A stretch of DNA of 64,000 nt from contig JALAGF010005857.1 in assembly GCA_030167865.1 (NCBI GenBank), forward strand, positions 124,001-188,000, given 5' to 3'. A program made the position numbers and the translations under genes. Below the pieces are notes generated by a model. The model searched no databases. It saw only the letters and a program-made list of their open reading frames with translations, and was not told where the DNA came from. Positions 7,471 to 29,869 of this stretch are shown one piece after another. How positions within the stretch are numbered: position 1 is the first letter of the stretch; each line of letters begins with the position of its first letter. The stretch is from Craspedostauros australis (Eukaryota).

Positions 7471-8450
7471 GGTGGTGGTGGGTGAGTGGACGTGTCTTCG
7501 TTTGTGTTTGGGAAGGAGGATGCTGACCCTTGGCTTCGATCTCGATCTCGGGCTTGGAGTTGTGTGTGGGTTTAGCTGCGGACGGGTTTCAGTTGCTTTT
7601 TCTCTGCTCGTGCATTGGTTGAGCCCAAGAGTTTCGAAACAGTCTTGTTCTGTCTTGTGTCTCTTTTCGTTTCGACTTTGGCTCGTCTTCAATTTATGAC
7701 TTGAAGTGTGATCTGCAAATGCACTTCTTGCGCATTCGTGTCGTCATTGCGGTTGTCTTTGCAGTTGTGCTTCGTTGCTGCCATGTTCGTCATCCCTTGT
7801 GTGTCCCTCCTTGATGTTGCAGGTATCGTATTGTCGTTGTCGTCGTCGTTGTCGTCATCTCTCCCTCCTTCCCATTCTCTCTCTCTCTGCGATTCTTGTT
7901 CCTTCTTCTTCCCTTCCGAGAACAGAATGAAAGATTCAAGTTGCGTTGGGGTTACTGCATGAATCTGTGACGTCGTGTTGATGAGATGGGTGCGTGTTTC
8001 GTTGTTCGCTTTCTTTCCACATCAAGCGAAGAATCGAAATCAGCCTTTTGACATGCGATGCTCAGTTCTGATTGGCCCATGCGTGGCGCGAACTGATGCC
8101 GACGTTGACAACAGAATCATTTCGTTGCGTGACGTAACTCCGTTGAATCGACGAAGTAGCGCACGTTTGGGGTCATTCAACGCAATTGGTCAGTCATGTA
8201 TAACTGTCGACTAACATGACTGAGATGAACGCGCCACAATCGAGTCCCCACACCAAAATCCAACAAAAACAGAGAGGACGCGAAATAGGTCGTATTCACT
8301 GCACTGCCCCATCGCAACACGCTCTCCACATCCCCGATGGACGGGTAAACAGAGGCAACACAACTCCATCCGTACCACTTGTTGGTAATCACGGGTGGCA
8401 GCAGCGGCAGCCGAGCGCATCTTGACGCACAAACGACTGAGAGTGTGACC

Positions 8451-8686
8451 ATGGTGTGGGAGGGCGCGAATCAGCAAAAGAGGAGCCATCCAGGTGTCGC
8501 TGGTGGAGCCGCAGGACATGATGATGCCGCGAAGCTTGCAGAACAGCAAGGCAGACGCCAGGGCCGGGTGGCAACGGAGACAGTGGAAGCTGCGATATCC
8601 CGACTGAGCAAGGCATATTTGGTCGCCATGCAATGCATCGGCGCGTTGAATCAGCTGCAAGCGGCAGTCTCAGGACATGAACAGCA

Positions 8687-8723
<37 letters not shown>

Positions 8724-11700
8724 GAGGTCGATGGAGACGAAGCAGCAGCTTTCGACATGGAGGCGTCGGTGGCATTGATGCAACGGGCTGCTATATCGGC
8801 CCGAAAGTCGCTGGAAGAGGGCGTTCTGCTGGACCCGTTGGTCACGGAATGCTCTCCTGCGCTGCAAGGCACGATCTATGATCTTCGACAGCGCGAAAAA
8901 CAGCAGCAGCAGCAGCCACACCCCGATCAACAGCCACAGCCGCGGCCTGACGATGCGACGACGGTCATTCAAAGGTGGGAGATCTTTGATGTTGTGCGCA
9001 ACGCGCCGCCTCTGGTATCATCCAACGCGCACAAATCGAAGATTCGGGAGGTAGCATATCTTGCATTGGTGAACTACTCGGACCTCCTGCAGAGCTGTTG
9101 CGGAGGCCCCTCTGCTCCCGCAACCACCGCTGCGAATACAACTGAAATGAGCGCAACGACAGACGCAGGAACAGGCGCCACATCGTCAAACACGGCCCCA
9201 TCAACTCAAAGCCAAGTTGAGGGCAAGGAAAGCACCGCGCCAAGACAGCAGGGAGTACTGGACAAGGGAGTCGTGTGCACGTTTGCAACATTCAAGACGA
9301 AACAGATATCTTGTTGGAGTGGAGAGGCTAAAGAAGACTCACACTCATTGGCACTTGCTGCTCTGTACGACGCTTCGTGCCTTGATGACTCAGACCCGAT
9401 CGTGTGGTTGAAGTTGGCATGCACGGCACGCAGCATGGAGACCATTTCTTGCAACTTGGGGCGTTCGTTTTCGAAGCAGAGGCGCTTCAAGAAGATGCAA
9501 CGTTACGCGCTGGAGTGCGGCAGCCAATGCCTACCACCGCACCTGCCGCCCAACCGAACCATCCTGAAGGCCCTCAAGCAATTCAGCAAGGATGAATGGC
9601 CAGAATCATACGTTGCCTACCCTCCTGATGAGGACACTGCGCCGAACACGATGACGGTGCAGATCCCGCGCTACTCATGGTCGATCCTTGGACGGTTGAT
9701 CTCCAAGACCTGCAGGGATGGCCACGAGCACAACCACAATCCAGCCATCGGCGGGCATCATCATCAAAAGAGCAAAGAGCCACAGTCTGATCGATTAGGT
9801 TCGCCCATGATTCATCTCAAACTCCCGTTGATACTTGCCATGCCGTCGCTGATCTTGGGAACCATCTGCAAGTATCTTGACGGTGCCTCAGTGGCAACGC
9901 TCCAATCAACCTGCAGAACCCTGTCCGTATCTGTCAACCCCGCCTTATCAGCCGTCGACGACCTCACCAACAACAGGCTGACGAATCAAGCCGCACCTCA
10001 TCCGTCCACGAACGGATCGCAACCGACAAACTCATCCCAAAGTGGCAACGATTCATCAAGGAAGGATGGTGAGCCAAGTCAGACCCAATCATCGTCCTCA
10101 GCAGCAGCACCGGCGGCGGCAGCGGGAGCAAACACTACCCGAACTACCACAGCGGCGGCGACAGCAGCAGCGACTGCACAGTCAATCCAGAACGATGAGC
10201 AGCTCGCTCGGAGTTTGCAACGATCGAACCGATCATCCAAGCGACTCAAATCGCAACTAATCGCGTCCAACAAGATTGCAGAGAGGAAGAGCAAGCGATC
10301 CTCCGTCGAGCAGTGCTTCTTGGCAGCAACCTTGCACGCATCAAAAGACCAGCACATGAAGTCGATGAAGGCCTGCGCACCGCAGCGATCTTATCTCGGC
10401 AAGTTCAAAACCATCACTCCGTCATCCAAACTATCACTAGTGCACAAGCGGTACCGAGTAGGAGGGAGGCTGCACCACACATCGTACTTGCACATCAAGG
10501 AAGCCATGGAACGAATCAGCGACTCTTCGCTAACGACCTTCATCCAGCACTGGAACGAGCACAAATCAGACCCACTCAACCTGCTTTCCAAATTCCTCTC
10601 GCACGTTGCGCTGTACACGGAAGACGTCTACATGGTCGATCCCAGTGGATCACTCGTGCTGACTTCCACTGTCGTCTCATGCTTCGATCTGATCATCAGC
10701 CGACGAGGATTGGGCGATGGCCTCATTCCGATCCACTTCAAACCAATCGAGGCAACCAAATCGGCACAGCGATCCATCGAGCTGTTCGCTATCGATTTGC
10801 TTGGCGCCGAGCTCATGCTCCGCAGTTGCGATCGTCATCAGATCACAGATGTGATGTTCGATGATTATGCCAGCATCGTGTCGCTTGTGGTTCCCGAGCT
10901 GGTTTCCATCATACACCGCTCCGACGATACAGTCGGCGATCTCACATCCGACCACAGCATGGCTCGTAGATGGACGAAGCTCCAGGTCCGTTGCTACTGG
11001 CTGGCGGCGCACTTCTACTTTTGGAGAGGCCGCATCTGCAACGACCTTGCCGAAGCCAAGGTAGCGGAGACCTACGGGTTGGAGTACATCGACGATGCCC
11101 TGGACGTGATGAAAGGAGCAGACATTGTGCTTGCCACGCCGCACCTTGTATCTCCTGGACGCACGGAGGCTCATTGGAGAGAGCTTTCCGTTGACTCGCT
11201 CACCAAATGTCGGGACGACATTCAGGCATCGTCCATCGTGTCGGAGGTGCGGGAGCGATTCCAGCAGGCTCTGTCCCAGCTCGCGGCGAAAAAGGCAGGG
11301 GATGGATCGCAAAGCGCAGATGCCCCTGATGTGGACATCTACCGAACTGGCATAATGAAGGAGTTTGATGAGATCGGAGAGATGTTGCATCAGCGATACA
11401 AAGCAACGCAAGAAAAGGCGGACTGCAAGCATATCGAGCTGATTCACGAATTTCTTTCAATGTATGGCGAAGTGTTGCTGGTGGACTACAGCACGATCAT
11501 CAACAACAGCACGCCATCGTCGCAATCGAAGAAGATCTTGCAGGTGGAGCTCCCCGTCGCAGAAATCGACTTGCCAAAGCTGGCAGAGCGCTCCGAACTG
11601 TCAATTCTGACGATCCTGGTCGTCAGCCTCAGGATGAGCCCCGCCAATGCACCGAAGGTTGTGGAAACGCTCTGCGGGTTGATCGTGACGATCAACGAAC

Positions 11701-14700
11701 AGCTCATGAGCCTTCTGGAGGAACATCCCACCGGCCATGGGTCATCGAACAATGGGTTCAGCGACAGCGATGCGAGTGGCGGTAGCGATGAGGACGACGA
11801 GGACAGCGACTTTCGCAGTATCGACAGACGCAGGACGAACATTCGCATCAACGAGTACGTGGGTTTGCTTGGCTTGCTGCTGGATCGGTTGGTGGAGCAC
11901 GCGAGCGGAGGTGGAACCGGGGAGACGCCTGGTACGCAATCACTGCGGGGGTGCTCGATCGCAACGACCGACGCCTTGAAAATCATCGACATCACATTCA
12001 CGCTGATCTGCACATCGCAAATCAAGATGGGGCATGTGCGAGAACAAAACAATGGCAGGGACGTGTATCTGCTGCAACGAATCCATGCCTTTGCGAACTT
12101 CATGCTTTTGCAAGAACCAGAGCAGCAGCAGCAGCAGCAGCAGGATGAGTCACAACAAACAGACGACGTCAAGATGGACGGCCAGGAGGATGGCCAGCCT
12201 GACAGAAAGGAGATTGCACGTTCATATACCAAGTGGATGCTGAGGACGATCTCGGAGTGTCGCAAAGGCCTTCAGGCCTTGCTCAAGAGTCAACGCAATC
12301 GAAACAAGCGATCTGCCCTGCAGCAAGCATGCGTGCAGAAGGCTCAGCTGATTGCCTTCGTCTCGATCAATCTGGGATCATTGCTGTCCGCAAACCTATC
12401 ACAGCTGGTCGATGGCAGATTGGTGAGGTCCCATTTGCTGTCCGTTCTACCAGATGGCGACACAGGCGCATCTTCGGATTCTCCCGACACACAATCCAAC
12501 CGATGTGAACCGTTGGAGGAAGCGGAGATCAGGCACTTCTGCGACAGCATTGTTTGGCTGTGGCATTATTGCTGCCCCCGGAGCGATACGTCGACATCGA
12601 ATCCAACGACCCAATTTGATCGCACCATCACGTATCATCTCCGCGAACCATTGGCCGTCTTGCTCATTGCGACGTGCGGTTCCATGGCCAGTTCCCGATC
12701 CTTGAATGGGATGCATCCGAATGCAACCTCGCCACTGCCACGGTCACCGCTGGTACAACACCAACCAGACACCACGCCCGCTGATTCCATCGGTCTGTCT
12801 GAGTTCTACGATTCCGATTCGAGCGTTCATCATGGTTCGTCCGATGGTAGCGACCACGAACAAGCAGACGACGAGGGTACTGGCGGAAGAAGTGGACGAG
12901 ATCAAAAGGCGTGGGATAGAAAGGAGTTGCTTCGCGCAATCTGCCATGCCGTCGAGACCATCACCAATGCCTTTCATAGGATTGACGAAAAACGTGCCAC
13001 ATCGCTGGTGTTGACGGACACACCTGAATCCGCTCGCCATGGCCCCATCCTTCCCCTTGCCGTGATCAGGGTGCTCAACTTCTTCGCTGATACGCTTCTC
13101 ACGAATTTTGAAGATGATGACGACGATGATGATGACGACGCTGACAATGGTGACGGTGAAGACCATGCGCACCCTACAGGTATCTGGGCACAATCGTTCC
13201 CCTACCGAACACAAACGATCGGCGATCGACTTGACACTTCCCTGCACAAGGCGTACCAGCTCATCTTCGGATTCCGATTGGTGCACGAGCGCAGCCATCT
13301 GAGCACTGGGTCCGACACAGGACCGACGACACTTTCCAATCAAATCGCGTCGAAGAACCACGTGCTTGAAAGCACCAAAGCGGCTGCTCAGCTGTATCGC
13401 TGCATCGTCAGGGCATATTCGTCAGGGCGACGGTCGCCACCGAAAGCTGCGTTGGAGGTGATTTCGGCTGTTCTTCCACCTTTCGAAGAAAGCAGCAACA
13501 GCAGCATCGTGAAGAAATTCCTTTTCGGGACGAGCTGCGTTTTGGATGCACCGAAGGAAATCACCAAGTTCATGTCCAACCCTGACCACATCGCCGAATG
13601 TGTGCCAGACATCAGCAAGTATCTGCTCGCCGCCAACAAGGACAGAGCATCATCATCTGACGATGATCAGCACGAAATCAGAACAGTTCAAAAGGGGATC
13701 TGCGCAGAGCTGGCGAAGGGACCATTGCCGTCGGTGACAGGTGATACGTTGAAGTCAAAACTCGACGGAGGTGTGGCAGATGAGTACTTAATCACTTCCA
13801 AGATGGAAGATGAGCTGAACAAGAAGTTCCACATGATCTTGGAGGACTTGTGCCAGCGCGATCTGAGCAACCCAGAGGGCTGGTACCGTGCCGCGCAGTG
13901 CCTCGGAATGAAGAGCGAGCTCATCGCGGATAGAGTCGGCCTCATGAAGGGATCTGGCCGATCGAGCAACTTCTCCATTCCCAAGAACACCAGGAGACTG
14001 CGAAAGCCATTCCTCGCTCATGATGACTTGGTGGCAGTGCAGATGGCAGAACTAACCGAACAGCGAGAAAACAGCGTTTCGTTCGTGGGATCCAATCTAC
14101 GCCCGTACGTGGAATATCACTGGTCCGACCAGGCGTCCCTGCAGAATATTCTCGATCATGTTGAACACGAAGCACGCAAGTCAACATCAGGCACGGGAAC
14201 GGCGATGGCGACAGCAATGGCTATTACCACATCTCGAACTGAGGCGACGAGGCAGCGCAATGATCGGGCAGTCATTGGCCAGCTCAAGAATTCTGCCAAG
14301 GCGGATTGGCATATTATCTGGGGTGGGATGTTCGTCCACGCGCTGCGCACACTCTCAAATAGATGCTTGTGCATCACCGTCCTGATCCTGAATGAAAAAG
14401 CCAAGGCGAAGGCAAAGCAGCTGGAAGAGAAGAAGGAGAAAGAGGCAGGGCAGAAGCAAGACAGGAGCAAGAAGCCAAAGGATGGTAACGAAGAGGAGCA
14501 AACCATGCTTTCGGAAGTGTGCGAAACTTTCGGAATTGCGTTGTACTCCATGATCATGGCATCGCAGAGGTACGGCTACCCCCTCAACATCATTACAGAT
14601 GCCGAGAAACGTGAATGGGCAGTAGCAGCGAAGGCTGCCTTCCAGCAGGCAGCTGACGCTGTGGATGATACGGCTGGGGACAACGATAATGACGACGACG

Positions 14701-17232
14701 ACGTCCACGAAACATGGGATCTCGACATGATGATCGGGAAATGCGAAGAGAAGATTGCCGCAACCTACAAACGCGAAGTATTTCCGACTCATCCAGATTC
14801 GCGTCGACAATATGAATCCAAAATGGCAGTCGCGTTGACCAAGTACGCCACGGCCTTGAAGCAGGCGATAGGCATTGAGGCCGATGGCGGGACCCTGTTG
14901 GATCAGGCAGGCGGGAGTGGCCATGGTTCGATGGAGATATTCTATAGACTGCATGCGACGCGCCTCAAGTGTCTCATTCAAGCAGCGTTGCAACATGAGG
15001 ACATCTATGGCGTTGCCGAAGAAGAGGCCCTCAGGCTTGCTGAGCTTCACTGGTTCCAGAAACCAAGCAGCAAGGTAGACAGCAAGGCAAAAGACGAGGG
15101 TGTGGGTAAGGGTAAGGGTAAGACAGTTGACAAGCCCGCAGCTGATACAGACGTGAAGATGGATGATGCAGGTGATACTGACGAGAAAAATGACCAGAAA
15201 AATGATGCAAAGGAGGGGGCAGGCAGAGCTGATACCATGGACATGAGCACTAAGGATGGTGACCGCAATCAGGAACAAGTGAAGGAAAGTGACGATAGCA
15301 CGCGTGAAGCTGATGTGACCACAACTGATGAAGGTCACGCTGGTGACACTCCGAGCACGCTGGAAGAAAAGAAGCCTGATAGATCAGATGTTGTTGAAAC
15401 GAAGGAGGAAGAGAAAGAGAAAGACGAAGGAAAGACAGATGAAAGTCAAGCGAAAGAAAAGGAGCAAGGGGGTACGGGCGACGTTGAAATGAAGGACAGA
15501 GATACAGACGCAGATGAAAAGCAAGAGAGCACGAAAGAGACGGGAACGAAAGAAAAGGAGGGAAGCAAGTCGGATGAAACAGAAACGAAAGGAGAGCAGG
15601 AAGGAGACACAGAAAGTGCCGAAGCGAAAGCAGGAGAAGAGGCAGGCAAGAAAGAGGAAGGGCATGGCAGCAATGCCAGTGATGGCGACAATGACAAAAG
15701 CACTGGCATGAACGTTGACAACGACAACGACAAAGGCAACGACAACGACAATAAAGAGAGCGAGAGAAGCCGTCAGGATGATATCGGCGATGTTGCCAGC
15801 ACCCGAGATCGAGTTTGGGCAGTCCTTGTTGACATCGTGGCAGCGCTGGCCAAATGCCGCAAAGATCAGCAATTCTTTCATCGATCGGTGTACAGACATG
15901 CGCAGGCATTGATGTGGGCACCGGTTCTGCATGATCCTGTCAACGGTTGGGCCAAAGGAAGTCTAAGCTCGTTGGTCGCTCCGAAAGGCCAGATGCTCTG
16001 TGGCCTGGATGTATCGATGCCCGTCGCAAACAGTGCCGAGCGCATCATCGCATCGCTATTCGACAAGAAGAGGTAAGCAGAGAACGAAGCAGGTACAGCT
16101 GCCAAGGCACTGCCATGTACGGTGCTCTGTTAAACTGTGTAATGCTCTGAATGGAAGCGCAATGTCTGTTGCTGTTCACTTCGTGTACTCCTACCTCACA
16201 CAATATCACGTAACCATCCACCAATCCATCCATTCGCGATCTCTCTCTTCGTGTTTGCCTTCTCCACACGTGTGACTTTGCGCCATGAATTCCAGAACCC
16301 AATTGTGCGCTGTCTGGGTGACCTCGGCATCCGAACCATCGCCGTTCCAGATCGTGAACAATTCCGTCCGCAAGTATGACTCTTTACGTGGGAAGTACAT
16401 CTCGGCCTACCTGGAGGCATTGCGCCTTTGCAACCGACGAGCGGAGGCAGAAACATTCTTGAAGTGGGCCTACCATGCCAAGCCAGATCTCCCGGCGCGT
16501 TTCCATTGCAGGGATTCGTTGCAGAAGAATAAGGGGTCGATACGTGAACCGTTGCTCATCGCCTCGGACTCCATCCGATGCATGACGTTCCTTCGCCACG
16601 TGAAACGCGAGGCGAACAGCAGCTTCGCTAAGGTTCTGATGCAGAGCATCGATGGGGCCAACCAGGGGACGTTGTTCACGATCTTCAAGCATGCGTACGC
16701 CTGTTGGCTGCGCATGCACTGCACCGTTGCCGACATTCAAAAGAGCCGGGCGTGGCGGTACAAGACGAGTCCGTTGAACGAGGTGGACCTGCTGGTGCAA
16801 GTATTCTGCGCAACCGGCGGGTCGTCGTCTTCGTCATCCTTGGGCGGGGAGGGTGAATCCATGAACGACTGGTCCGGCGGCGGGCACAAGCTAGCGCTGC
16901 TGAAGGCCAGCATCGCCCACGCCAGCGGCCAATTCCCGAACCTGACCGCCGGCTTCTTTTCGAAGAAGGCCTCGACGGGCGGCTCGAACAACAAGCGCAA
17001 GGCGGAGGATGAGACGAAGGTGCCGTGCGAGGTGGCTGTGCCTCCCGATCTCGCCGAGGGCGACACCTTCCTGACCACAGTGAAGGTCGGCACCATCACG
17101 AAGCGCGTGAAGCTGACCGTGCCGCCCGGAAATCCCAGCACGCTGCGATTCATGATCCAGATGGCTTCCAGCGATGAGCTCGAAGGCAACCACCAAACCG
17201 CCACCAAGAAGGCCAAGACAACAACGACCTAA
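8451..17232 (+). CDS. CABIN1: CABIN1/Hir3-like subunit of the HIRA histone chaperone complex, about 2852 aa; exons 8451-16072, 16296-17232
   Basis: N-terminal TVEAAISRLSKAY, TPR-like ALYDASCLDDSDPIVWLKLA, and C-terminal EIFYRLHATRLK and CRKDQQFFHRSVYRHAQAL resemble conserved Cabin1/Hir3 blocks. The phase-2 intron GTAAGC..TCCAG (16073-16295) restores the frame. Confidence 0.75.
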
Positions 17233-18162
17233 ACTGCGTGTGCTGTACAACATTAAATATCCTACCATGCTATGATAGTCATGATGCTGGTCGGATCCGA
17301 GGAATGTCTGGTAGCATAGTGTGCCACTGTACTGCATTGTGTTATGTTGAGGTGCACTCCTCCGCGTGTGTTTTCTAGTCTCTGTCTAGTCCCATGCAAT
17401 AGCCGTAAAGGGAGAGTTGGATCTTCCGAATCTCCTCGAAAGGCTCAAACAGGGCACAAAAGAAGCCTGTCGGATGTACATCCGGGTTCTGGAGCGTGCG
17501 ACGCACAAACCAACACGTGATGAATGAGTGCTTCGTGAGAACCGGCGCGCGACTGACGCGACAAAAGGGAACAAACAGGGCTGTTTGGATGAATCGTCTC
17601 TCTTGTGCGGTCTATTTTGGTTGGGTGGCTGTGATGTCAACAAAAAATAGCGCCGAAAGCGGAAAGAAACCGACAACAAGGAGTGGGGGGCACGGAGACG
17701 ACTCCGCGGTGAAATGCGAGTGGGCTTGCGAGGAGAGCATGTTCTTGCGACAAGACAACGAGCGATCACAAGAATCGTCCAAACAGAACCGTATCGGTAA
17801 CGTGGAATGCTGACAGCGCAGAGAGTGCTTGGTACCCCAATACGACTACTCGCAGCAGTAGATGGATCAAACCAAGCCATCAAGAGGGAAGCCATCATAT
17901 AATACGTACACCAATCATTGCAGTGATTCCAAAGTCGACAGCGGCATTGCCCTCCCATCATGGAAGTAACCAAGACGTACCACCAACAGACAGCGATAAC
18001 GAAGGACAAAGGACGACAGACGAAGGACGAAACAACGTGCCGAAGAAAAGAAAGCAGAGCAGTATAGCGCACCAACAACAATACAACTTCCATCTATTCG
18101 TACGCCGGTACGACCAGAGTACTGTGTTCATAAACGTGACGCAACTCCAAGCCAAGAAAGCG

Positions 18163-21100
18163 ATGAGCGTCGTGACAGCACCAGCACCAGGGCCACCACC
18201 CTGCGATGGCCCCAACAGCGATGTGTTTGGAGACTGCGCACTGGTGGAGATCATCCATCTGCACGATTGTTTGCGCGGTGCTCTCAAGACCCTGGCCAAC
18301 GATGTGTCCGGCATGAACGATCTGCTGGTCCAGCAACAGCAATCACAGCAACAATCACAATCACAACAACTGCCCAAGCAGAGCATGCAAGACATCGTCG
18401 ACTTGGAACGCAGAGTCAGCGCCAGATTCCAGGTGATTTGGAGTGTATTTCGTGCGCATTCTGCCGCAGAGGATGAGTTCATCTGGCCAGCGTTGAAGCT
18501 CAAGACGCAAGGGTTGATCACAGGCAGTCCAAAGCATGAACCGAACTATGACGATATTGAGCATCATCATGAGCATCAACATCATGAGCATCACCATGGG
18601 AGCCACAGCCACAGTGGGATGCATTCAACGAATGATGCATCGGCGACCGCCAGTACTGTTGCCAGCTCGCCGGCGGACCAATCGACGCAAGATCCAACAC
18701 CATCACAGCAACAGCAGCCACAACAACAACAACAACAAAAACAGCAACCCACGGGTGTCATTGAGCAGGAAGAATACGAGGAGGATCATGCAGATGAGGA
18801 ACGTATGTTCTCAGAAATGGATCGCCTCCTCACCGACTTGCGCAAAGAACTCATAAAAACAAAACAGGTGCAACCCGAATCCGTAAAGACCCTCATCGCC
18901 TCCGTCCAAGATCGATCACAAACGTTGTGCCAGCATCTCCTCATCCATCTCCGCAAGGAAGAGCAGCAGTGTATGCCGGTAAGTCTCGTCGGATCTCGTA
19001 TGCACACGAATACCAACAGCAACAGCAACAACAATTCTGATATTGCGTGGCATTGCACAGAACAAAGAGATGGTCCTTTTTGCGGGTCCAGAAGAAAATT
19101 CGATGGCTGCATCCGCCCGGCAGCGATCCCTTGGATAAACAGGCAGACTCCATGCTTGCTTTTTGTTGGCGTTGGTGGTGTTGTTATTGTATCCTTACAT
19201 GTTTGGGCATGATGTGATGGTGCGCTTCGCAACAAGTATCCTCTGCTTTAATTTTCCTGGCGCATACAGTTGTCGCAATGATCTCACCCGTTTGCCACCA
19301 ATGGATGCATTGCGTCGTCCCCAACTCCAAACAATCAATTGCAGTTGGTGATCAAGCATCTGTCGAAACCGGAGATCGATGAACTCGTCGGTCAGATCAT
19401 GGGCAAGCGTTCATCGGAGGTCGTCGGTCAAATTATGACCATGGCAGTGCAAAGTCTCAATAGCAAGGACAGAGCCGAGATGGTCTCCAACATGAAGCGG
19501 GCCATGTCGGGAACATTCTTCGACCGCTGGCTGTCCATGTCCGGCTGGATGGACAGCGATGATCAACACCCAGCGCTTACAGGTGCGACGAAAACAGACG
19601 CTTCTTGCGCCAGTGACAACGTCAGTGTTAGTGACAGCAGCACGGCCACAGACGCTGTTGCCGTTGTCGTTGCCGCCCAACAGAAACGACCTCTGGACGA
19701 CGATGGACATAACGATGAAACACAAGCCAAAAGGGCCAAGCATGCATCAACTGCATCATCCACCAACGCGCATCCATCACGACAGCATCAGCTGGAGCAA
19801 CGCGAACAGGAACACAATAGCCCACAACAACACCAGAGAGATTTACCCAGCGTCGATGCCAACATCAACCCCGAACTCCCCAACATGAAACAATCCAACA
19901 AAGATGATGTCACCAGCCAGACCGAGTTGCAAAAGCTCATTCGTGCCATTGCCTCCAACTCAAATCTATCCTCGCAGCAGAAGACCACCACCATACAAGG
20001 ACTGCGCGATTCGATCTGGAAGAACAATCAGAGAGTCAAGCAGAAGATTCGAGACAAGCAGATCATGGCAAAGCACGAAGGCGGCGATTGCAGCCATCTG
20101 GTGACGGCTCTGTAAGTCAACAGAAACGACCATGCTCATGGGCAAACCCACACCCACGACCATCCATCGCAAGGAGGGTCATTGCGAGGGATTGGTTTGA
20201 TTTGATTTTGGCTTCGTCTCCTCCAATGCCGATTCGATTATTTACGCCGCATCAACTGACCTCGCTTCTTTTTTCTAATACGATGCTTACTCTGCTGTAT
20301 CCTGTGCTCAATAATCTACAACAATGGCGATGACTGCAGTGGATCGCCCGTGACAGAAATGAAAAGAGACACTCCCCCGTCAAGGTACTTTAAGAAGATT
20401 GACGGCGCAACCGTTCAGATACGGAATCCGTTCAGCGACCCCATGATCTGTTCCGAAGTCGGAACGATGCCACTGTTTTCGTCATCCGAACTCGCGCCCA
20501 CCCACCACGATGGAACGACCGGCGCCGTCCTTGGCTGCCCGCATTACGCCAGAGCCTGCAAACTCCGGCACCCAAAGTCGGGTAAGTTGTACACCTGCCG
20601 ACTTTGCTGCGATCAGGAACGCGAGCTGCCCAGCGGAAGTCAAGACGAACAGCTCGATCGCTACGCCGTCAGCGAAGTCATGTGCATGAAGTGCAACACG
20701 CTGCAGCCAGCAGACAAGGGATGCATCAACACTGAATGCGAACTCAACAGCAAATCATTCGCGAAGTACTTCTGCAAGATCTGCCATCTATACGACGACA
20801 GGCCGCGCCCAATCTTCCACTGTCCATACTGCAATACATGCAGAATGGGGAAAGGACTCGGCATCGACTATCGTCATTGCATGCGGTGCAATGCCTGCGT
20901 CCTCCTCACCGACAAGAATCACCGCTGCATTCCACAGAAATTGCAGGGATCGTGTCCGATCTGTCACGAGAGTCTATTCCAATCGACACAGCCGCTGCGT
21001 GGGCTGAAATGCGGACACGTGATGCACCTGTCCTGCTTCACACAATTCCGACGTCAGAGCTACACGTGCCCGCTGTGCTGCCGTTCCATGGAGGACATGA

Positions 21101-21300
21101 AGGATTACTTTGCCCTGCTGGATACTGCCATCCGAACCCAGCCCATGCCGATCATGTACATGTCGCTCGTGAGCACCATTTACTGCCAGGACTGCGAAAA
21201 AACAGGGCAATGCAACTATCACTTTGTTGGGCAGAAGTGCTCCAGCTGCGGTTCCTACAACACACGTGAATTAAGCCGAACACAACGAGGCGCAACGTAG
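18163..21300 (+). CDS. BTS: Hemerythrin + CHY/CTCHY + RING-H2 + zinc-ribbon E3 ubiquitin ligase (BRUTUS/HRZ-like), about 847 aa; exons 18163-18978, 19345-20111, 20340-21300
   Basis: HHE motifs HLHDCLR, HSAAEDEFIWPAL, EDHADEE and HLRKEE. Zinc fingers GCPHYARAC, IFHCPYCNTCRMGKGLGID, RING-H2 CPIC..CGHVMHLSC..CPLC and CQDC..KCSSCGSYNTR. Two phase-consistent GTAAGT..CAG introns (18979-19344, 20112-20339). Confidence 0.9.
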
Positions 21301-21591
21301 AGGAGCAAGGAGCAGGCATGTCAATTGAAGAGATCTGAGGCCTTGTGCGAGCACGTAGAGGACTTCACGCTCAGTGCATACTTTTCCATTCTGAGTTATG
21401 AGCAATACCACACTCTGTACATTCTCTCCAAACACATATACGTAGGTTCACACATGGCATCCGCCAGAGTACTATTTCGTCACCTGTTGTGCCATACATT
21501 TGCACCATAATACTCGTAATGGAGACTCTCACGATAATGTAGCTGAACGGTAACGGATCCAACAAAGCTCTTTCCAAGCACCACACCTGTT

Positions 21592-24500
21592 CTATTCATC
21601 GTCGGAATCAGCATCCCCATCGAATATCTCTGGCATGTCTCCGTCGTCGTCGTCGTCATCGTCGTCACCATCATCGTCATCGGCAACTTCCCGATTACTA
21701 TCTTGATGACCGGTGGTAGTTGCTTCCGCATCGTCACCATCATTATCAGAGTTGCCCTCGTCGTCCTCGTCGTTGCCGTCACTGTCTTGCGCCTTGTTGG
21801 TGCGTTCTGGAATGTTGATTTCATCTTCGATAATCATGTTGTCCTGCGATGCATCATCGTCTCCAATAGGTGCATCTTCAACTGGCGTTGGGACAACAGC
21901 AACCGCAGTGGCGGTGGCGGTAACCTTGGTCTTGATGGCGTTACCTGCTTTGTCCTTTTTCGCACTTTGTGGGGGCGTCGCGATAAGTGTCGTCTTGCTC
22001 CTGTTCGATTCCGCTTGATTATTGCTTGCTCCAATTGCAACGGCAGCTTGCGCAGGCTTTTGTTCTGGCTGTGGCAGTTCAGAAGACTTGGGGCGTTTAG
22101 TCGCACCTTTGGAGGCAGCAGAGCTCGTCTCTTCAGATGTTGATGCTGCGGATCTCTTCCGTTCGGTCTGTTGGTTTGTTCGGAACTGCTCCATCGCATT
22201 AAGGAAGGCGTTGACCGACAGTTTGCTGCCGATGTTCTGACCGCCACCTTTGTGGTCTTCATGACCTGGAGACTGGTTGGCCACGACCATCTTCAATGGG
22301 GGTGCTCTGGACATGCTGGACAAGTTGCAGATCTGCAATGCTCGTTGTGCTGCGGCAATGACTCGCACGTCGCAACTTGAGAGCAGTTGCCGTGCAGTCT
22401 CCGATACAACACCGGAGATGGAACTGGATGATCCATCCGACCACGGTGTGAGCTGGCACGTGGATGCCAAATCGAGGATGGCGTTCGTCATGACGGAGTT
22501 ATTTGCCGTGTGGTGCCGGTGCATGACAACGAGCGTCAGACTTTCTCTAGCGATACCGTCCACCAACGAGCGGGTCACGTCGCTCAAGTATCCGCTGCAG
22601 GATTGCAGGATGGCCACGAGGCATTCCGCGGCGGTGACACTGCGGTAATTAATAGAGAGAATGAGGACCCATCATTTGGGAGATGGGAGGCATTGATATG
22701 GTCGGAACGATGGAACGAGATGAGATGCAGTGAGTTGTCAATTCTGTCGAAGATGCGATTGTGACTGCAAGTACCTGCAGTTGCGCACTCGTCATGCACG
22801 TACAAATCAGAAAGCCAAGAAATCCGATGGAACACAATGAGCAAGAACAATACCAAACGGATAATAAACGTCAACAGGCAATCAGCCAATTGCCAATCAG
22901 TTCTTGAGTCAGTCAGACGCATGGAACATACATGAGTTGAGTTCGCTCGAGAGAGGACCCCCATTGGGTGCCGTCCGATGCGCACTGCTTGATGCAAGCA
23001 AGTTGCTCCACCAAGCTCCCCGCCACCAACCGCGTGCCTTGCTCGACATCGTTGGTGGAATTCTTCTTCTTGCTACGATTGCTGCTGCTACTGTTCGAGC
23101 CATCGTGGTACCCGAATGAGGCAACGATGATGCGCAGGCTCTGGATGGCCATTCGACGCATGGGAATGGATTCATGCAACCACCGTCGTTGTTTTTTGCC
23201 GTTGTTGTTGCCGTTGCCGGTGGAGTTGGCTGGATCGATGATTGAGGTGACGGCGCCCGAGCAGGATGTGACCAACGATGCGTATCCAATCCGAATGATG
23301 CGTGCGGCGTATGGCAGTGCTGTCGGCCCGCCCAATTGCAGCAGCACGGTATCCAGGAGTTCATAACCCAATCGTTTCACGTGACTTGCTAAAGTGCAGG
23401 CAATCATCGTGGGACTGAGCATCCCATTCATCATGATCTCCTGTCGCAATCGCCTTTTGGTCCGTGCGTACAAACTCTCCGATGCCAGTGAGAAGGACAG
23501 CAGAGTTTCCAGCAGATTCAGCAGTTCTTCCATGTCGATCTTCAGGCCGATGAGGAAGGGTGCGTTGGAGGATGCCCTGCCGTAATCATGTTGGAGCAAT
23601 GCGATCAAGACGTAGATGAGGCCCGTTAAGTAGGCCTTGACTTGGAGAACCCGCAGTTGGTGCGATTTCTGTGCGCGCAGGACGTCCAGCCAGGATTGCA
23701 CTCGTTGTTCTCTCCATGAATTGGCATCGTTGTCGGGACCACTGCCAAGGCCTCGAACGGGAGCAACCTCTGAGATGAGTCTTTCGATCATGACGACGCA
23801 ATCCGCAGTCATCGTATTCCAAATATCGTTGGATGCTGTCTTGCTGTTTGCACTGTTGGTAATATTGTTGCTGCCACTGCTGTTGGTGTTGCCGCTATTG
23901 TTCTGCAACAGCCCTGCCGCTCCCGTCAAGGGAAGCACGCTAAGCAACTTGGCAGACGCGCGTTGAATGCCGCAATGCGGCACAAACACAAGACGCCATG
24001 CAGCTTGACGTATCTTTTGCAAGAGGGATGTCGCACGTGACATTTTGATTTGGAACAAGGTCAGCAACGACGTGATCGCGCGGATCATGGCCATGCAGGA
24101 TGATGCGTGATGTGGAATGTTGTCTGCACGGAGGATGGCAACACCAAGGGCGTCCACTAACGCCGTCAGCAGCGCCTTTCCGTGTTCCAAGAGGAGATCG
24201 TACTCGACGACGCTGCAGGCACTCGTTTGGGCATGCGTTGGAATGTACTCGCTGGTGGCAGTCAGAACATCGGCAGCCGCCATGTAGATCTTCAGATGGA
24301 GGGGGTTGCGGGAAGAACCTTCCATCTGCAACATACGAAGCAACGCAGCCATCATGTAGTTGGAATCCTGCAAGCAGCTGGTGATGGAATCCGCATTGGC
24401 ATGGGCTTCTTTGCGTTTGTGACTTTTGCGATCCGCGGTACTTTTCTGGGCGCTGGTCTTCTTGGAGAGGTAGAGCTCTGCGCTCTCCACGTCACCTCTC

Positions 24501-24793
24501 AGCAACCCGCATTTCGAAATGGTGACGGTGACCTTCTGCAGCAGCTGCAACATCTCCGTCTGCTGCTGGAATTCACGCTGCAGCATGTGGTCATCGACCA
24601 CGGCGGTGTCATCGCCATCGCCATCTTCACCGCTTCCCCCATGCTTTCGTTTCTTTTGGTTCGTTTCGATGGACCTGATCAGCGCCAACAGCCGCTGACC
24701 GGCGCCATCTTTTCCACTCGATGATAATGCTTTGCTCTTGCTCTTGCTCAGTCCAGGTGGGTTGACGTCGCTCACCAGCAACAGGTCTTCCAT
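21592..24793 (-). CDS. RIX1/PELP1-like ARM/HEAT-type ribosome biogenesis factor (putative), about 969 aa; exons 24793-22932, 22639-21592
   Basis: Long Leu-rich helical region (RASAKLLSVLP, GYELLDTVLLQLGG-TALPYAARII) and an acidic tail ending DDGDMPEIFDGDADSDDE, like PELP1/Rix1 homologues. Phase-2 intron GTATGT..CGCAG (22931-22640). The gene is clear; the family call is moderate. Confidence 0.6.
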
Positions 24794-25830
24794 CTTGTCA
24801 CAACTCTTTCCTCGTTGAGTAGAGTAACAATACACTGGCCGAGCTTCTGCTGTGACTCTCTTCGTTGTCTCCTGCCTCCTGCCTCCTGCCTACTGTTTCT
24901 TATTGGCATCAATCAAAGAGTACGTGGACAATGACCTTTCTGGTCACCTCCCTGAGAAGAGACTTTGTTGGAGCATTCGTGGAGTAGACAGGTGAGACAG
25001 AGAGCGAGGGAGGGTGGCTCCATCTGCGCTCCTGTCAGCACTCCAGGCGTTTTTCGTTGATGGGTTGGTCTCTTTGTTGTTTGGTCGACATCAACTTGGT
25101 TGGTTGGTTGCGGGTCTACTCTCGTTTGTGGTTGTTCACAAAAAATGAGATCGTCTGGACGTCGACGGTACACAATCGATGAAATGATGAAACCGAACTC
25201 TCTTGTCACCAACCATTTGTCTTCGCATGGTTGTGGTCAATGTGACGTCAGCAGGAAGAAGACGCAAGAAAGCTTGACATCCTTGCCATTCCGGTTCTTT
25301 GGCTTCGTCTCTGGGCGGGGTGGGCGTGGTAATGCTCCATGAGCATGTAGTAGTAGTATCTATGTCACAGATGGCAACGTTTCAACTCTATCCTGATGCA
25401 TGAAGTGGAGTGCGGGTACGCAATTGTTCCACCCGCCATGGGCAGGATGTGATAGAGCGTGTCGCTACTGCGGAGTGGAGCAGAGTGTTCGCAGGAAGAA
25501 CAATCAGTAGTGTAATAGAAGAATGCTTTCCAGAGAGAGAGAGAGTATCCGACTTCCTCTTTGTATGGCAGCACTATCACAATCTGCGAGAGCTGGGACG
25601 ATGCAGTTGCAGATTCTTTGTCAATGGTCTAGTTTTACAGTATTGATTCAGTAGCAAAGTCAGTGTCTGGGTCGTTGTTGGTCGTGGCATAGATGGATTG
25701 ATGGATGTACGTGGTTGTTGAGTTGGCGTGTTGGGCTTCTAACGAGGAGGGATACCATGCCTTGTGCACCATGCAAGAGCTGGACGCAGACACATGCGTG
25801 AGGGCGATGCTTGAGCACTTGTTGTTTTCT

Positions 25831-28017
25831 TTAGGACTCGGTCGTGCGGTGGGCCTCCAGCACTTGGAGGGCCTCGGAGATCTTCGAGTTCAGTGCTTCT
25901 GGGCTCTCCAGAAGATGGAGCAGCTCTGAGTTGTCCATTTCCAGGAGCATACCGGTGATCTTGCCGGCGAGCTCGGGCTGGGACTCGTGGATGAGCGGGT
26001 AAAGTCGCTCTCCGATCATGTTCTTTTGCATTTCTGGGGTTGCCGAGGCAAGGGCCGCGGCGGTGAGGGCGTTCTCCGCTGGGGCTGGTGCGCCTTGGGC
26101 TGGCATTGGCTGGGCGGCCTGCTGTGGGTTGGCAGGGGTGCCGGCGTTGCGGGCCTGCTGGTTGAACTTGATTTGCTGTCCACCCGGCTGCTGTCCGCGG
26201 CCTTGCATCGGACCGCCTGGTCCACGCCCACCGCGTCCGCGGCCCTGCATGCCACGTCCTCCCGGTCCCATCATGCCGTAGCCCATTGGGTAGCCGCCGC
26301 GTGCCTGTCCTCCCATCATCGGGTACTGTCCTGGGCGGCCTCCTGGACCGCGTCCGCCTGGTCCCATCATCTGGGGCATGCCCATTGGGTAGGCGGGCTG
26401 CATGCCGCCGGCAGGTCCTGGTCCTCTCTGCATGTACATTGGCATGCCTGGGTATCCCATTGGGCCGCCCATTGGACCGCGCATCATTCCAGGCTGTCCT
26501 GGACCGCCGTGTCCGGCTGCGCGGTTGGCGTGCTGGGCCTCGAGCTGGGCGCGTCGGACCTCACGGCGCTGGGCCAGGGCCACGAAGATTGGCTTGTTGG
26601 CGATGTGCTTGCCGTTCATCTCGTTGACGGCGCGTGTGGCTTCTTCGGAGGTGGAGAAGCACACGAAGCCGAAACCGCGGGAGCGTCCGTCCTTCATGTC
26701 GCGCATGACACGGGCGGAGGTGATGGTGCCTATGGTGGCGAATTCGCTGCGCAGCTGGTCGTCGGTGACGGTGTCGTCGAGGTTCTTGACGTAGAGGTTG
26801 ACGCCCTGGAACTTGGAAATGCGGTCGACCTTCTCGGCCTCGTACTTGGCACGCAGCTCGCGTTCGCGCTCGGCCTTCTTCTGCGCGCGTCCGACGTAGA
26901 GCTCTTGCTTGGTCTCCTCGCCGTCGATGGTGGTGTCGAATTCCTTTCCGTTGAGACCCTCGATTGCGGCCACAGCAGCTTCGTGCTCGGCGAAGTTGAC
27001 GAATCCGTAGCCGAGGGTTCCGTGAACGGGTTCTTCTTCGACGAAGATTTCCTCCTCCTGCTTGGGCTCCTCGGCCTTGTCGTCTGACTTGTCCTCGGCC
27101 TTCTTCTCATCGGCGTCGTCCTTGGCGGCATCTTCGGTGTTGTCGGCCTCGGCGTCGTCGCCTGCCTCAGAGTTGGCGGCATCGGCGGGCTCGGCCTTCT
27201 CGTCGTCGCCTTCAGCTGGTGCGGGCGGTTGCTTGAGTGCCTTCTTGCGTGGCTTTCGGAGGCCCTTGGCGATGCTGGCGCTGATGACCTCTCCGTACTG
27301 GGCGAATTCCTGCTCGAGCTTGGTGTCGCTCCACTCGAGGGGGATGTTCTTGACGTAGCAGTTGGTCCAGTCGTTCTGTCCCGGGCGTTCGTTGCGACGC
27401 ATGAAGGCTCCCACGGCGACCTCCTGGCCATCGATGAGCATGCCGTCGAGCTTGTCGATGGCGGCGTTGGCGGCCTCGGCGGTCTCGTAGTGCACGTATC
27501 CGTAGCCCTTGGAGCTGCCGCTCTCGCGGTCGACGACGACCTTGCAGGAGAGGATGTTTCCGAAGAGGCTGAAGGTGTCGTAGAGCTGCTTGTTGTCGAT
27601 GGATTCGTGGAGGTTCTTGACGAAGATGTTGCCGACCCCGGAGCGGCGGAGGGAGGGGTCGCGCTGGCTCCACATGATGCGGCACGGCTTGCCCTTGATG
27701 ACGGAGAAGTTCATGGTGTCGAGGGCGCGCTCGGCATCCGCCATCTGATGGAAGTTGACGTAGGCGTAGCCGAGGGAGCGGCGGGTGACGGAGTCGCGGC
27801 ACACGCGGATGGAGGCGACAGGCCCGACCGCGTTGAAGATTTCGAAGAGGAGGCCCTCGTTCACATCGTTGGCCAGGTCTCCGACGTAGAGGGAGGCGGA
27901 GTGCAAGAGCGGGCTTGGTCCAGCGGCTCCCTCAGAGGATGCTGGGGCTGGGGACGCGACGTTGGTTGGGCCGGTTGGGGCCTCGGTGGCTGGCTTCGTG
28001 GCGGTTTCAGCAGACAT
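25831..28017 (-). CDS. PABPC: Cytoplasmic polyadenylate-binding protein, 728 aa
   Basis: Four RRMs (SLYVGDL..SLGYAYVNF; NIFVKNL..SKGYGYVHY; NCYVKNI..GYGFVNF; NLYVKNL..SRGFGFVCF), a Pro/Gly/Met linker and an MLLE domain (KITGMLLEMD). The start is taken at MSAETATK (ATG 28017); the upstream ORF extension is simple-repeat UTR. Confidence 0.97.
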   Translation of the reverse strand: MSAETATKPATEAPTGPTNVASPAPASSEGAAGPSPLLHSASLYVGDLANDVNEGLLFEIFNAVGPVASIRVCRDSVTRRSLGYAYVNFHQMADAERALDTMNFSVIKGKPCRIMWSQRDPSLRRSGVGNIFVKNLHESIDNKQLYDTFSLFGNILSCKVVVDRESGSSKGYGYVHYETAEAANAAIDKLDGMLIDGQEVAVGAFMRRNERPGQNDWTNCYVKNIPLEWSDTKLEQEFAQYGEVISASIAKGLRKPRKKALKQPPAPAEGDDEKAEPADAANSEAGDDAEADNTEDAAKDDADEKKAEDKSDDKAEEPKQEEEIFVEEEPVHGTLGYGFVNFAEHEAAVAAIEGLNGKEFDTTIDGEETKQELYVGRAQKKAERERELRAKYEAEKVDRISKFQGVNLYVKNLDDTVTDDQLRSEFATIGTITSARVMRDMKDGRSRGFGFVCFSTSEEATRAVNEMNGKHIANKPIFVALAQRREVRRAQLEAQHANRAAGHGGPGQPGMMRGPMGGPMGYPGMPMYMQRGPGPAGGMQPAYPMGMPQMMGPGGRGPGGRPGQYPMMGGQARGGYPMGYGMMGPGGRGMQGRGRGGRGPGGPMQGRGQQPGGQQIKFNQQARNAGTPANPQQAAQPMPAQGAPAPAENALTAAALASATPEMQKNMIGERLYPLIHESQPELAGKITGMLLEMDNSELLHLLESPEALNSKISEALQVLEAHRTTES

Positions 28018-29869
28018 CTTCAAGTTTGTTGGTTTGGTGTTGCTTTGCTTTGTTTTGCTTTGCTTTGCTTTGGTGTTGCGTGTTGTGTTGTGCTGTTGTT
28101 GAAGGTGAACTCGTGGGCTGGCAGACTGCGAGTACAGGTTGAATAGAGCAGCGGTGAATGAGATGTGAGGTTTGTTCGTTGGTTTGGTTGGTTGGTTGGA
28201 TGGATGAGGCTGTTGCTTGTTGCTTGTTGGTGACAAGAGCTCTTGTTGGGTTGGGTTGGTCTGAGTCGGGCTTGCTTTGGCCGAAAGTTGTGGCGTGAGG
28301 CGTTTCTGCACGAGTAGTTGCTACAGCGACGATTTGGCGGAGGCAACTGTGAGGCTGACAAGTGCGAGCGAGGTGTTGTGGATGATGAGGCTGCTGCTTC
28401 TGATGCTACTGCTGCTGATGATGATGATGCGAACTTGGATGGAGGTGGAGGCAGTGAGGGTGAATGGATGGCTGGTTGGTTGGTTGGTTGGATTGGAGTC
28501 CACGCAACCACGAGCCACGAGGACAGAGACCAACAAGCACGTATTGCCACAGAAAGGAAGGCGGATGGTGGAACGGTTTCGTTACGAAGCTCGATTGAAA
28601 CAGGAGAGGAAGAGACGAGTGGATACGAGCCACGAATAGCCGTGAGGAAGGACAGGTTAAGAGGTGCTGAACCAGAGCCAGGGCGCCTACGATGAAATTT
28701 GTGCTGCACGTTGCACATACCATGTCTGTGACGACGCTGCGATCTGGTTGGATGAGTGGTTCCCCTTGTCCTCCTGCTATTGGTCAGAATGCTGCAGCAC
28801 GCACGATTGTCGCTCACGCAGCCAGTGTTTTCGTTGCGTGTCGTGTTGCATCCGGCGTCGTTGTTTTGCTTCGCATGCACACAGCAACGCTTCCTCTTTC
28901 GACGTTTCAAAATATCCATGTCTCAACTCCGGCGCGCCCTTCCTGTTGTCAGCTTTTTCTTTCGAAATCGTGGCTCCGCTTCGCTCGCGGTTTGAATTTC
29001 GTGTCACATCGAAGTTCCGTATTCCATGGAGCCAACTTACAGGTGGAGCATGGAGGCACATCTTTTTGATGGAATCTAGTACAGAGGTAAAGCATGTGCA
29101 TCGCTGAGGGCGACCCAGATTTTCGTGAATTGGAAGACGCAACGGGAATGAAAAAATTATTTAATACCGCAGCTCCGACAAGGGAGCAGCGATAAATTAC
29201 GTAATTGCCGATGGAATTCTTTGGATGAGATGTTGTGGTTGGCTCATGGCTAACTTCGACACCTGCTTGTGGGATGTCGCCATGTTGGTCTGTGTTCATG
29301 TTCCGACAGAGATTGCTTCCCCATCATACTCGTAGCTTGTGCTATTCCATAGTATTCTATTATATAATATAATAGATCAAGAGGACGATAGCAATGCACA
29401 TGCACGTAGAGCAGAGTACTGTCTCTGTATTGACCGCGGTGTTGCCAGCCGTAGGTTGTAAGAGTCTGGGGCGTGCTCCTGCAACTGGAGTTGCATCTTC
29501 ATGTTTAGTTTACGTACCTTGGCAGATACAAGCAGCCTGAATCAAAGACATGCTCATGTCTATGAAATATCCACGGTTCAACATGATGCAAGGAGCAGCT
29601 AAGTTCACTCTCTTGGGTCCCACACTTCACGTCGACATGCTGGTGCCTACACTTTGCCCAGAAGGAGGTGCATCCTTTGATGCATTATGTTGCTTGTCGG
29701 AAACTTTGGCTTCTGCACTTCAGACAATCACGATGGGGATGTTCTGTATTCATGGCACGATCGTATGATGTTGCTGACACTGCGGCATCATCCCGATGCG
29801 GTCGATCAGGTAAATGACATGGTACGCTGCTGCTTGGTTTCTTTTCTTGGTTCATTTGTTTTCTATTGT

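Follow-up and report, generated by a model that had tools for sequence, protein, structure and literature searches.

A predicted single-hemerythrin RING-H2 ubiquitin ligase of the BRUTUS/HRZ lineage in a diatom

BRUTUS (BTS) and HRZ proteins are plant ubiquitin ligases in which hemerythrin (Hr, or HHE) domains precede a series of zinc fingers. According to the accessible part of a 2025 paper, the Hr domains of BTS and BTSL2 bind diiron centres, which are redox-active and labile on reduction, and the presence of three Hr domains is called invariant in the green lineage (PMC12022348). The combination of HHE with CHY-RING domains has been placed in green algae, land plants and three red algae, as far as the accessible text of another paper goes (PMC5022407). 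We analyzed a window of 64,000 nucleotides from Craspedostauros australis (contig JALAGF010005857.1, positions 124,001 to 188,000), and describe here a gene on its forward strand, at window positions 18163-21300, which is predicted to encode an 847-aa RING-H2 E3 ubiquitin ligase of the BTS/HRZ lineage.

Members of this gene family have been noticed in diatoms before. Phatr3_J12097 of Phaeodactylum tricornutum, annotated as a KOG1940 Zn-finger protein, is listed as LoFe-UP and among the most strongly low-Fe-induced genes in the accessible portion of Smith et al. 2016, where it is proposed to be an Fe-binding regulator (PMC5156380). The accessible part of the 2025 paper also mentions, with reference to Davidi et al. 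2023, that Fe deficiency induces homologues in diatoms (PMC12022348); in the accessible material of Davidi et al., the words BRUTUS, BTS and hemerythrin are absent from the main text and have 0 occurrences in one supplement. In a review from 2021 on the iron metabolism of diatoms (PMC7966952), the terms hemerythrin, sensor, sensing, ubiquitin and transcription factor are all absent, and literature searches found no functional study of a diatom gene with hemerythrin and CHY domains. Since the family was flagged in 2016 and its diatom homologues were mentioned in 2025, the gene in our window adds a further member and clearer homology rather than a discovery. Its novelty is thus limited, and was overstated in an initial annotation of this stretch. 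What is new here is the homology from the third Hr domain of BTS (H3) to the C-terminus, the placement in the BTS/HRZ clade and the wider distribution among ochrophytes.

Gene structure and relation to the BRUTUS/HRZ clade

The gene (18163-21300, + strand) has three exons, at 18163-18978, 19345-20111 and 20340-21300, and two introns with GTAAGT...CAG boundaries. Exon 1 (codons 1-272), delimited by its ATG and donor site, encodes the N-terminus and most of a hemerythrin-like four-helix bundle; within the open frame 17713-19212, no in-frame ATG precedes the start codon at 18163. Intron 1 (18979-19344) is 366 nt long. Exon 2 lies between the acceptor CAG at 19342-19344 and the donor GTAAGT at 20112 and ends in phase 2, and it is followed by intron 2 (20112-20339, 228 nt). 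Exon 3, including the stop codon TAG (21298-21300), encodes the zinc-finger E3 module according to its open frame and Pfam matches. Scripted joining of the three exons gave 2544 nt, corresponding to 847 codons plus stop with 0 internal stops, and the reading frame across exons 2 and 3 was kept only with the 20111|20340 junction.

When diatom homologues were aligned to the window by tblastn, 11 of 11 were collinear across both introns, four of them (P0038, P0053, P0057 and P0088) being transcript-derived. Matches of homologues reaching the first junction stopped at 18981-18987 in exon 1 and restarted at 19330-19339 with the adjoining residue, so that intron 1 was skipped. At the second junction, residues 291-478 of P0012 finished in exon 2 and residues 479-808 carried on in exon 3, leaving intron 2 flanked by residues 478 and 479. 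A hidden Markov model (HMM) of the family Hr region had likewise reached position 214 when exon 1 ended, and restarted at position 212 at 19339. Fused transcripts occur in relatives: among the 120 exon 1 matches listed, five were MMETSP transcript open reading frames (ORFs) of 724-944 aa, and 88 of the 120 had a precomputed zf-CHY match. The model is supported because all 11 relatives are collinear across the introns, and we regard the predicted three-exon structure, with Hr and zinc fingers in one intact frame as first annotated, as confirmed by sequence comparison to be a real diatom gene.

Exon 3 matched three zinc-finger families at curated Pfam thresholds. The CHY zinc finger (20536-20769, + strand; PF05495, E 1.2e-14) covers exon-3 residues 66-143, the RING-H2 finger (zf-RING_2; 20950-21078, + strand; PF13639, E 3.2e-8) covers residues 204-246, and the zinc ribbon (zinc_ribbon_6; 21094-21267, + strand; PF14599, E 9.7e-22) covers residues 252-309. 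The CTCHY region between the first two (20770-20949, + strand), which includes the motif CRMGKGLGID, was delineated by aligning human RCHY1 (7ynx_A; E 4.3e-36, residues 7-190 of the chain against query residues 55-249), which gave a match continuous through CTCHY. RCHY1 structures were also matched at E 1.2e-41 when the family profile was compared with PDB sequences, and direct reading of the RING finger gave the spacing C-x2-C...C-x-H-x2-H...C-x2-C. The window protein thus has the CHY-CTCHY-RING-H2-zinc-ribbon order of BTS/HRZ ligases, while neither an F-box nor leucine-rich repeats (LRRs) were among the Pfam matches at E<=0.1 on any exon.

Searching 1.84 billion representatives with exon 3 returned 3041 relatives at E<=0.001. 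The long relatives (1000-1490 aa, with a C-terminal match) are BTS-type; the names of their clusters include 'zinc finger protein BRUTUS-like At1g18910' (Papaver) and 'Zinc finger protein BRUTUS' (Porphyridium), and further ones are from Volvox and a pedinophyte. When profiles of 58 diatom homologues and of 25 BTS-type proteins were aligned by hhalign, the probability was 100 and E 9e-140 over 623 aligned columns, spanning diatom positions 59-819 and BTS-type positions 395-1020 of 1029. This match opened at the third Hr domain (residue 621 of the Porphyridium 'BRUTUS', P0155) and ended at the C-terminus. The diatom Hr-region HMM matched every Hr domain of BTS-type proteins; its best match was nearly always the Hr nearest the zinc fingers, and only there did it continue into the segment behind the domain, to about position 277.

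Trees of the zinc-finger module gave the same placement. In a quick tree of 126 rows, all Hr-bearing rows, which were classified by an HMM built from the diatom family itself and are to that extent less independent, fell into one 51-row group (SH-aLRT 94). A careful tree was then based on 84 rows, 39 Hr-bearing and 45 Hr-less, leaving out 9 suspected fragments and 33 further Hr-less rows. Here 39 of 39 Hr-bearing rows together with P0148 formed one clade (support 99/96), diatoms grouped with Pinguiococcus (98/96), and the window row was nested in the diatom clade (100/99). The phylogeny suggested in the initial annotation places the module among Hr-bearing proteins, and the trees show descent of the predicted zinc-finger module from the BTS/HRZ clade. 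Because the profile alignment runs from H3 to the C-terminus and the module falls in the Hr clade, we take the window protein to correspond to the C-terminal part of BTS, from the last Hr domain through the zinc fingers, as had been proposed. The proposed diatom source was borne out as well, both by the position of the window row and by named matches from Fistulifera, Nitzschia, Thalassiosira, Cyclostephanos and others.

P0148 (634 aa) was the sole row inside the Hr-bearing clade of the careful tree with no detected Hr domain. It retains the linker motif and has a C-terminal extension of approximately 240 aa, and could either have lost its Hr domain or stem from an erroneous gene model.

The hemerythrin-like domain and the segments behind it

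An AlphaFold2 (AF2) model of the N-terminal region has four long helices at residues 18-64, 72-114, 202-231 and 238-270, with a mean predicted local distance difference test (pLDDT) score of 74.1. Helices 1-2 (18214-18504, + strand) contain the candidate ligands H34, H99 and E103, and helices 3-4 (18766-18972, + strand) contain H209, E213, H262 and E266, all assigned from invariant residues and the model. Between helices 2 and 3 lies a loop insertion of 93 aa (residues 112-204; 18496-18774, + strand), predicted to be disordered since pLDDT is approximately 45-59 at residues 120-200. The Hr domain of the window protein is both cut by intron 1 and broken by a long loop.

Residues H32, H34, H99, E103, H209, E213, H258, H262 and E266 were invariant in 65 sequences (exon 1 and 64 diatom homologues), and the invariant ligand set reproduces the pattern known from Hr-like proteins, H-HxxxE-H-HxxxE. 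When BTS-type proteins were included (68 sequences), the histidines in helices 2-4 were still invariant, as was the EE of the HxxxEE motif in helix 4 (E266/E267). In the hhalign alignment with BTS-type H3, H34 falls on the histidine of FHKA, and H99/E103 fall on the AHSxAED motif. Among 58 full-length diatom homologues, 32 matched Pfam Hemerythrin (PF01814) at E<=0.01, with a best E of 3.3e-6, compared to 24 of 25 in a BTS-type control set. A weak match (E 0.062) of the family profile to the FBXL5 hemerythrin (3v5x_A) among PDB sequences covered helices 3-4. No second Hr-like region was found in the window when 944 six-frame segments of at least 40 aa were scanned with HMMs at E<=10; the scan matched only the three exon segments (Hr in exons 1-2, linker in exon 2, zinc fingers in exon 3). 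By these comparisons, the predicted protein has one hemerythrin domain of the iron-binding type.

The insertion between helices 2 and 3 is a family trait; anchoring was possible for 46 of 58 homologues, in which it has a median of 51 aa and a range of 25-99. In the window protein it consists of a His-rich run followed by a Gln-rich run, with 13 His and 17 Gln in 93 aa. Homologue loops have a median of 2 His, and at least 6 His were present in just 1 of the 46 anchored homologues, for which reason the His-rich tract was rejected as a conserved metal site; the His/Gln-richness of this loop is, judging from its relatives, lineage-specific.

Exon 2 opens with the end of helix 4 and a post-hemerythrin helical segment (residues 273-340; 19345-19548, + strand), which is highly conserved among diatoms and aligned to the stretch behind H3 of BTS-type proteins. 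It is followed by a linker of low conservation (residues 336-461; 19534-19911, + strand), in which a bipartite-like basic cluster (residues 386-404; 19684-19740, + strand) was recognized by its basic pattern. Besides the window protein, 25 of 34 homologues have this cluster, these 34 being those of the 58 that could be anchored there, and it suggests a nuclear-localisation signal. Two linker helices conserved among diatoms, SQTELQKLIRAI...IW (residues 460-505; 19906-20043, + strand), come next, and their HMM matched 31 of 147 representatives, with BTS-type and Hr-less proteins both included. A full-length model of the homologue P0088 (pLDDT 78.3, predicted template modelling score 0.49) has the same arrangement of a bundle, four further post-Hr helices (residues 224-294), a disordered linker, two linker helices (338-349 and 356-381, pLDDT approximately 86-90) and the zinc-finger module.

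Three segments of the protein had been put forward as specific to BTS rather than Pirh2-like, and this held for one of them. IDELVGQIMG..GTFFDRWL, behind the bundle, tracks an Hr domain beside the zinc fingers, whereas the other two also occur in Hr-less CHY-RING proteins. The HMM of SQTELQKLIRAI..IW matched 13 of 87 tree rows with no detected Hr, some of which are fragments, and others sit in clades with named fungal proteins, as inferred from their tree position. In the case of CRMGKGLGID, xGLGx is absent from human RCHY1, yet it is frequent among Hr-less CHY-RING proteins, KGLGI for one being present in 16 of 87 rows. Both motifs thus set the predicted protein apart from animal Pirh2, but not from CHY-RING ligases generally.

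The one-Hr form was not limited to the window. Diatom homologues, including transcript ORFs marked complete, have 20-60 residues ahead of Hr helix 1, and one-Hr forms were also found in Pinguiococcus (P0128, with a 700-aa cluster member) and, among brown algae, in Discosporangium (P0134, 957 aa). Two Hr matches were obtained in Cyanophora (778 aa) and three in Porphyridium. Two plant proteins with one Hr, P0159 and P0161, were rejected as only apparent cases, being fragments of proteins of 1242-1292 aa. The alignments show that the predicted one-Hr form is conserved in diatoms and in at least two other ochrophyte lineages. The top identity among the matches listed was 79% for exon 3, and for exon 1 it was 63% over partial coverage, or 84% over 14% of the query; at identities this low, the source would be a diatom with no close relative in the searched collections.

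Proposed mechanism and its alternatives

We lean toward reading this gene as a single-Hr ligase of the BTS/HRZ lineage, whose Hr domain would be the counterpart of H3 and would sense Fe by analogy with BTS/HRZ and FBXL5. Behind the N-terminal four-helix domain, which matches the third Hr domain of plant BRUTUS, lie the helical segment associated with H3, then a linker that varies and probably serves nuclear targeting, and finally the CHY-CTCHY-RING-zinc-ribbon module. The Hr domain would bind a diiron centre, and its occupancy and oxidation state may report cellular Fe (and O2). A change in the diiron state would alter the stability or activity of the ligase, and the RING module would ubiquitinate proteins that regulate the response to iron starvation. 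Low Fe is likely to induce the gene itself, as it does plant BTS and the P. tricornutum gene with the same two described domains. Plant BTS/HRZ substrates are bHLH IVc and PYE-like proteins, and transfer of these substrates to the diatom protein cannot be assumed.

Several observations weigh against this reading. PF01814 gave no match at E<=0.1 to the exon 1 or exon 2 translation alone, and the hemerythrin call therefore rests on family-level evidence. The Pfam check suggested at the outset thus succeeded for zf-CHY, zf-RING_2 and zinc_ribbon_6 on exon 3, and for Hemerythrin it did so in homologues but not on the window exons. Even among the 58 diatom homologues, 26 were unmatched at E<=0.01, and most of the matches obtained were under the Pfam gathering score (18.3 bits vs 25.3 for P0004). 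Foldseek of the exon 1 model on PDB returned 0 matches at E<=0.001, and in a wide VIA-align search generic or designed helical bundles led (Z 15.8), with 3cax_A (Z 14.3) and 2p0n_B (Z 13.0), both of which we take to be hemerythrin-like, and the hemerythrin DcrH-Hr (2avk_A, Z 11.4) below many designed bundles. Because the domain is a plain four-helix bundle, such fold searches are non-discriminating and speak neither for nor against it. In the accessible part of PMC12022348, the three Hr subdomains of BTS are described as one rigid interdependent unit with no independent action, and a one-Hr protein may therefore work differently. The link to the low-Fe-induced P. tricornutum gene is also indirect, Phatr3_J12097 being probably an orthologue of the window gene as judged by its published domain description alone. 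Lastly, no contig joint over either intron was present in X1, the only public run that contains the stretch, which is RNA by guess only; its contigs covered only 19456-19621, in exon 2, and 20505-21500, from within exon 3 onward, the latter with no differences to the window.

In our view, it is quite unlikely that what the Hr-like domain detects is O2, reactive oxygen species or NO instead of iron supply, with the ligase serving in a response to redox state or hypoxia. According to the accessible text of PMC12022348, BTS/BTSL2 have redox-active diiron centres and FBXL5 requires both Fe and O2; the sequence holds nothing that separates Fe sensing from O2 sensing, and a bacterial O2-sensing hemerythrin, DcrH-Hr, is among the fold matches. 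However, the P. tricornutum gene with the same two described domains is strongly induced by low Fe (PMC5156380, accessible portion), and for plants and green algae the whole clade is linked to Fe homeostasis in what is accessible of PMC12022348 and PMC5022407. We give a similarly low probability to the helical domain being a structural or regulatory appendage that does not sense metal, attached to a constitutive Pirh2/MIEL1-like E3 with unrelated substrates. The weak or absent Pfam Hemerythrin matches and the 25-99 aa loop between helices 2 and 3, not found in BTS H3, would fit such an appendage, but all candidate ligands are invariant in the 65 diatom sequences and common to BTS H3, which would not be expected of a degenerate domain, and the zinc-finger module has its place among Hr-bearing proteins, outside the Hr-less clades.

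A further alternative is an error in the gene model, with hemerythrin and zinc fingers belonging to separate genes, or intron 1 being retained to give a hemerythrin-only product of 350 residues ending at 19212. The exon 1 frame is indeed open until 19212, neither intron is crossed by a read or contig in run X1, and many metagenome gene calls of 230-300 aa match exon 1 alone. Against this, canonical splice sites keep the frame, the 11 collinear homologues span both junctions and include transcript ORFs marked complete, and the short exon 1-only proteins are mostly unnamed metagenome or assembly calls, with an organism or transcript named in 5 of 105 rows; they are possibly single-exon calls, since almost all come from unnamed gene calls. 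We consider a wrong model very improbable.

The preferred reading, a single-Hr ligase sensing Fe, can be extended further: a one-Hr 'minimal BRUTUS' may have been fixed in ochrophytes (diatoms, Pinguiophyceae and brown algae), in which a single H3-type diiron domain with its post-Hr segment is enough to link the activity of the RING ligase to Fe/O2 status, and which acts as the master iron sensor of diatoms. We find this extension attractive but doubtful. If true, it would contradict the supposed need for three interdependent Hr domains, and the mechanism of sensing could be worked out on a much simpler protein. Limitation of diatoms by iron is commonly regarded as a constraint on ocean productivity, and the single-Hr family is an obvious candidate for a diatom iron sensor, whose smaller size than plant BTS may ease biochemistry.

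An iron-responsive promoter motif was considered and rejected. Upstream of the gene there is a single CACGTGY site (17513-17519, minus strand), which has T as its next base and therefore misfits the 8-mer CACGTG(T/C)C quoted in PMC11947080, leaving the motif unsupported. CACGTGY was under-represented in the window, with 12 sites vs a mean of 29.9 in shuffles, 100 of 100 of which had at least 12.

Upstream of the ligase gene on the + strand are open frames of 2575 aa (8349-16076; no Pfam family at E<=0.001) and 318 aa (16276-17232; no Pfam match). Downstream, a convergent open frame of 359 aa on the - strand (21592-22671), which has a long Asp/Glu-rich tail and no Pfam match, ends approximately 290 bp away from the ligase stop codon, and 389 nt of contig 3 of run X1 extend beyond 21500 into this region. 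Another open frame with no Pfam match (22913-24889, - strand) and a poly(A)-binding protein gene (25834-28320, - strand), identified by four RRM_1 domains (1.7e-77) and MLLE (8e-32), follow; the latter gene lies at the GC peak of the window (0.645 at 26001-28000). Rfam gave 0 matches over 15000-24000. The neighbouring genes bear nothing on the function of the ligase gene.

Comparison with known systems

Among described systems, the closest are BTS, BTSL and OsHRZ, which have the same CHY-CTCHY-RING-zinc-ribbon module with 44-50% identity to the window protein. BTS/HRZ proteins share its clade (99/96), and the H3 ligand motif, post-H3 segment and linker helices are collinear over the 623 profile columns. 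As in these ligases, an Hr (HHE) domain with ligands stands before the zinc fingers, and the module groups with those of Hr-bearing proteins. The window protein differs in having one Hr domain, H1 and H2 being absent, compared to the three Hr domains of BTS/HRZ, whose N-terminal unit exceeds 950 residues. Accordingly, the lengths differ, with approximately 700-950 aa in the diatom family vs 1200-1400 aa in BTS/HRZ, and BTS H3 does not have the helix 2-3 insertion of the diatom proteins.

RCHY1/Pirh2 resembles the window protein in its CHY, CTCHY, RING and zinc-ribbon fingers, which can be aligned over residues 7-190 of 7ynx_A, and differs in having two residues fewer at the GLG position, that is, no GLG insertion. 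Since the match opens at residue 7, the 7ynx_A chain has nothing before the CHY finger, whereas approximately 590 residues including the Hr domain precede this finger in the window protein. RCHY1/Pirh2 proteins start at the CHY finger and have no hemerythrin, which is not the case here, and Hr-less CHY-RING proteins fall outside the Hr clade, with the one exception being P0148.

FBXL5 is similar in coupling a single N-terminal hemerythrin-like domain to ubiquitin ligation. It is, however, an F-box/LRR adaptor of a cullin ligase and has no RING in the same chain, according to the accessible part of PMC12022348, while in the window protein the hemerythrin is not followed by an F-box and leucine-rich repeats. 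FBXL5 is thus an analogue and not a homologue in overall architecture. Phatr3_J12097 of P. tricornutum, like the window gene, comes from a diatom, and its product is described as having a domain that is hemerythrin-like, together with a zinc finger of the CHY type, in the accessible portion of PMC5156380.

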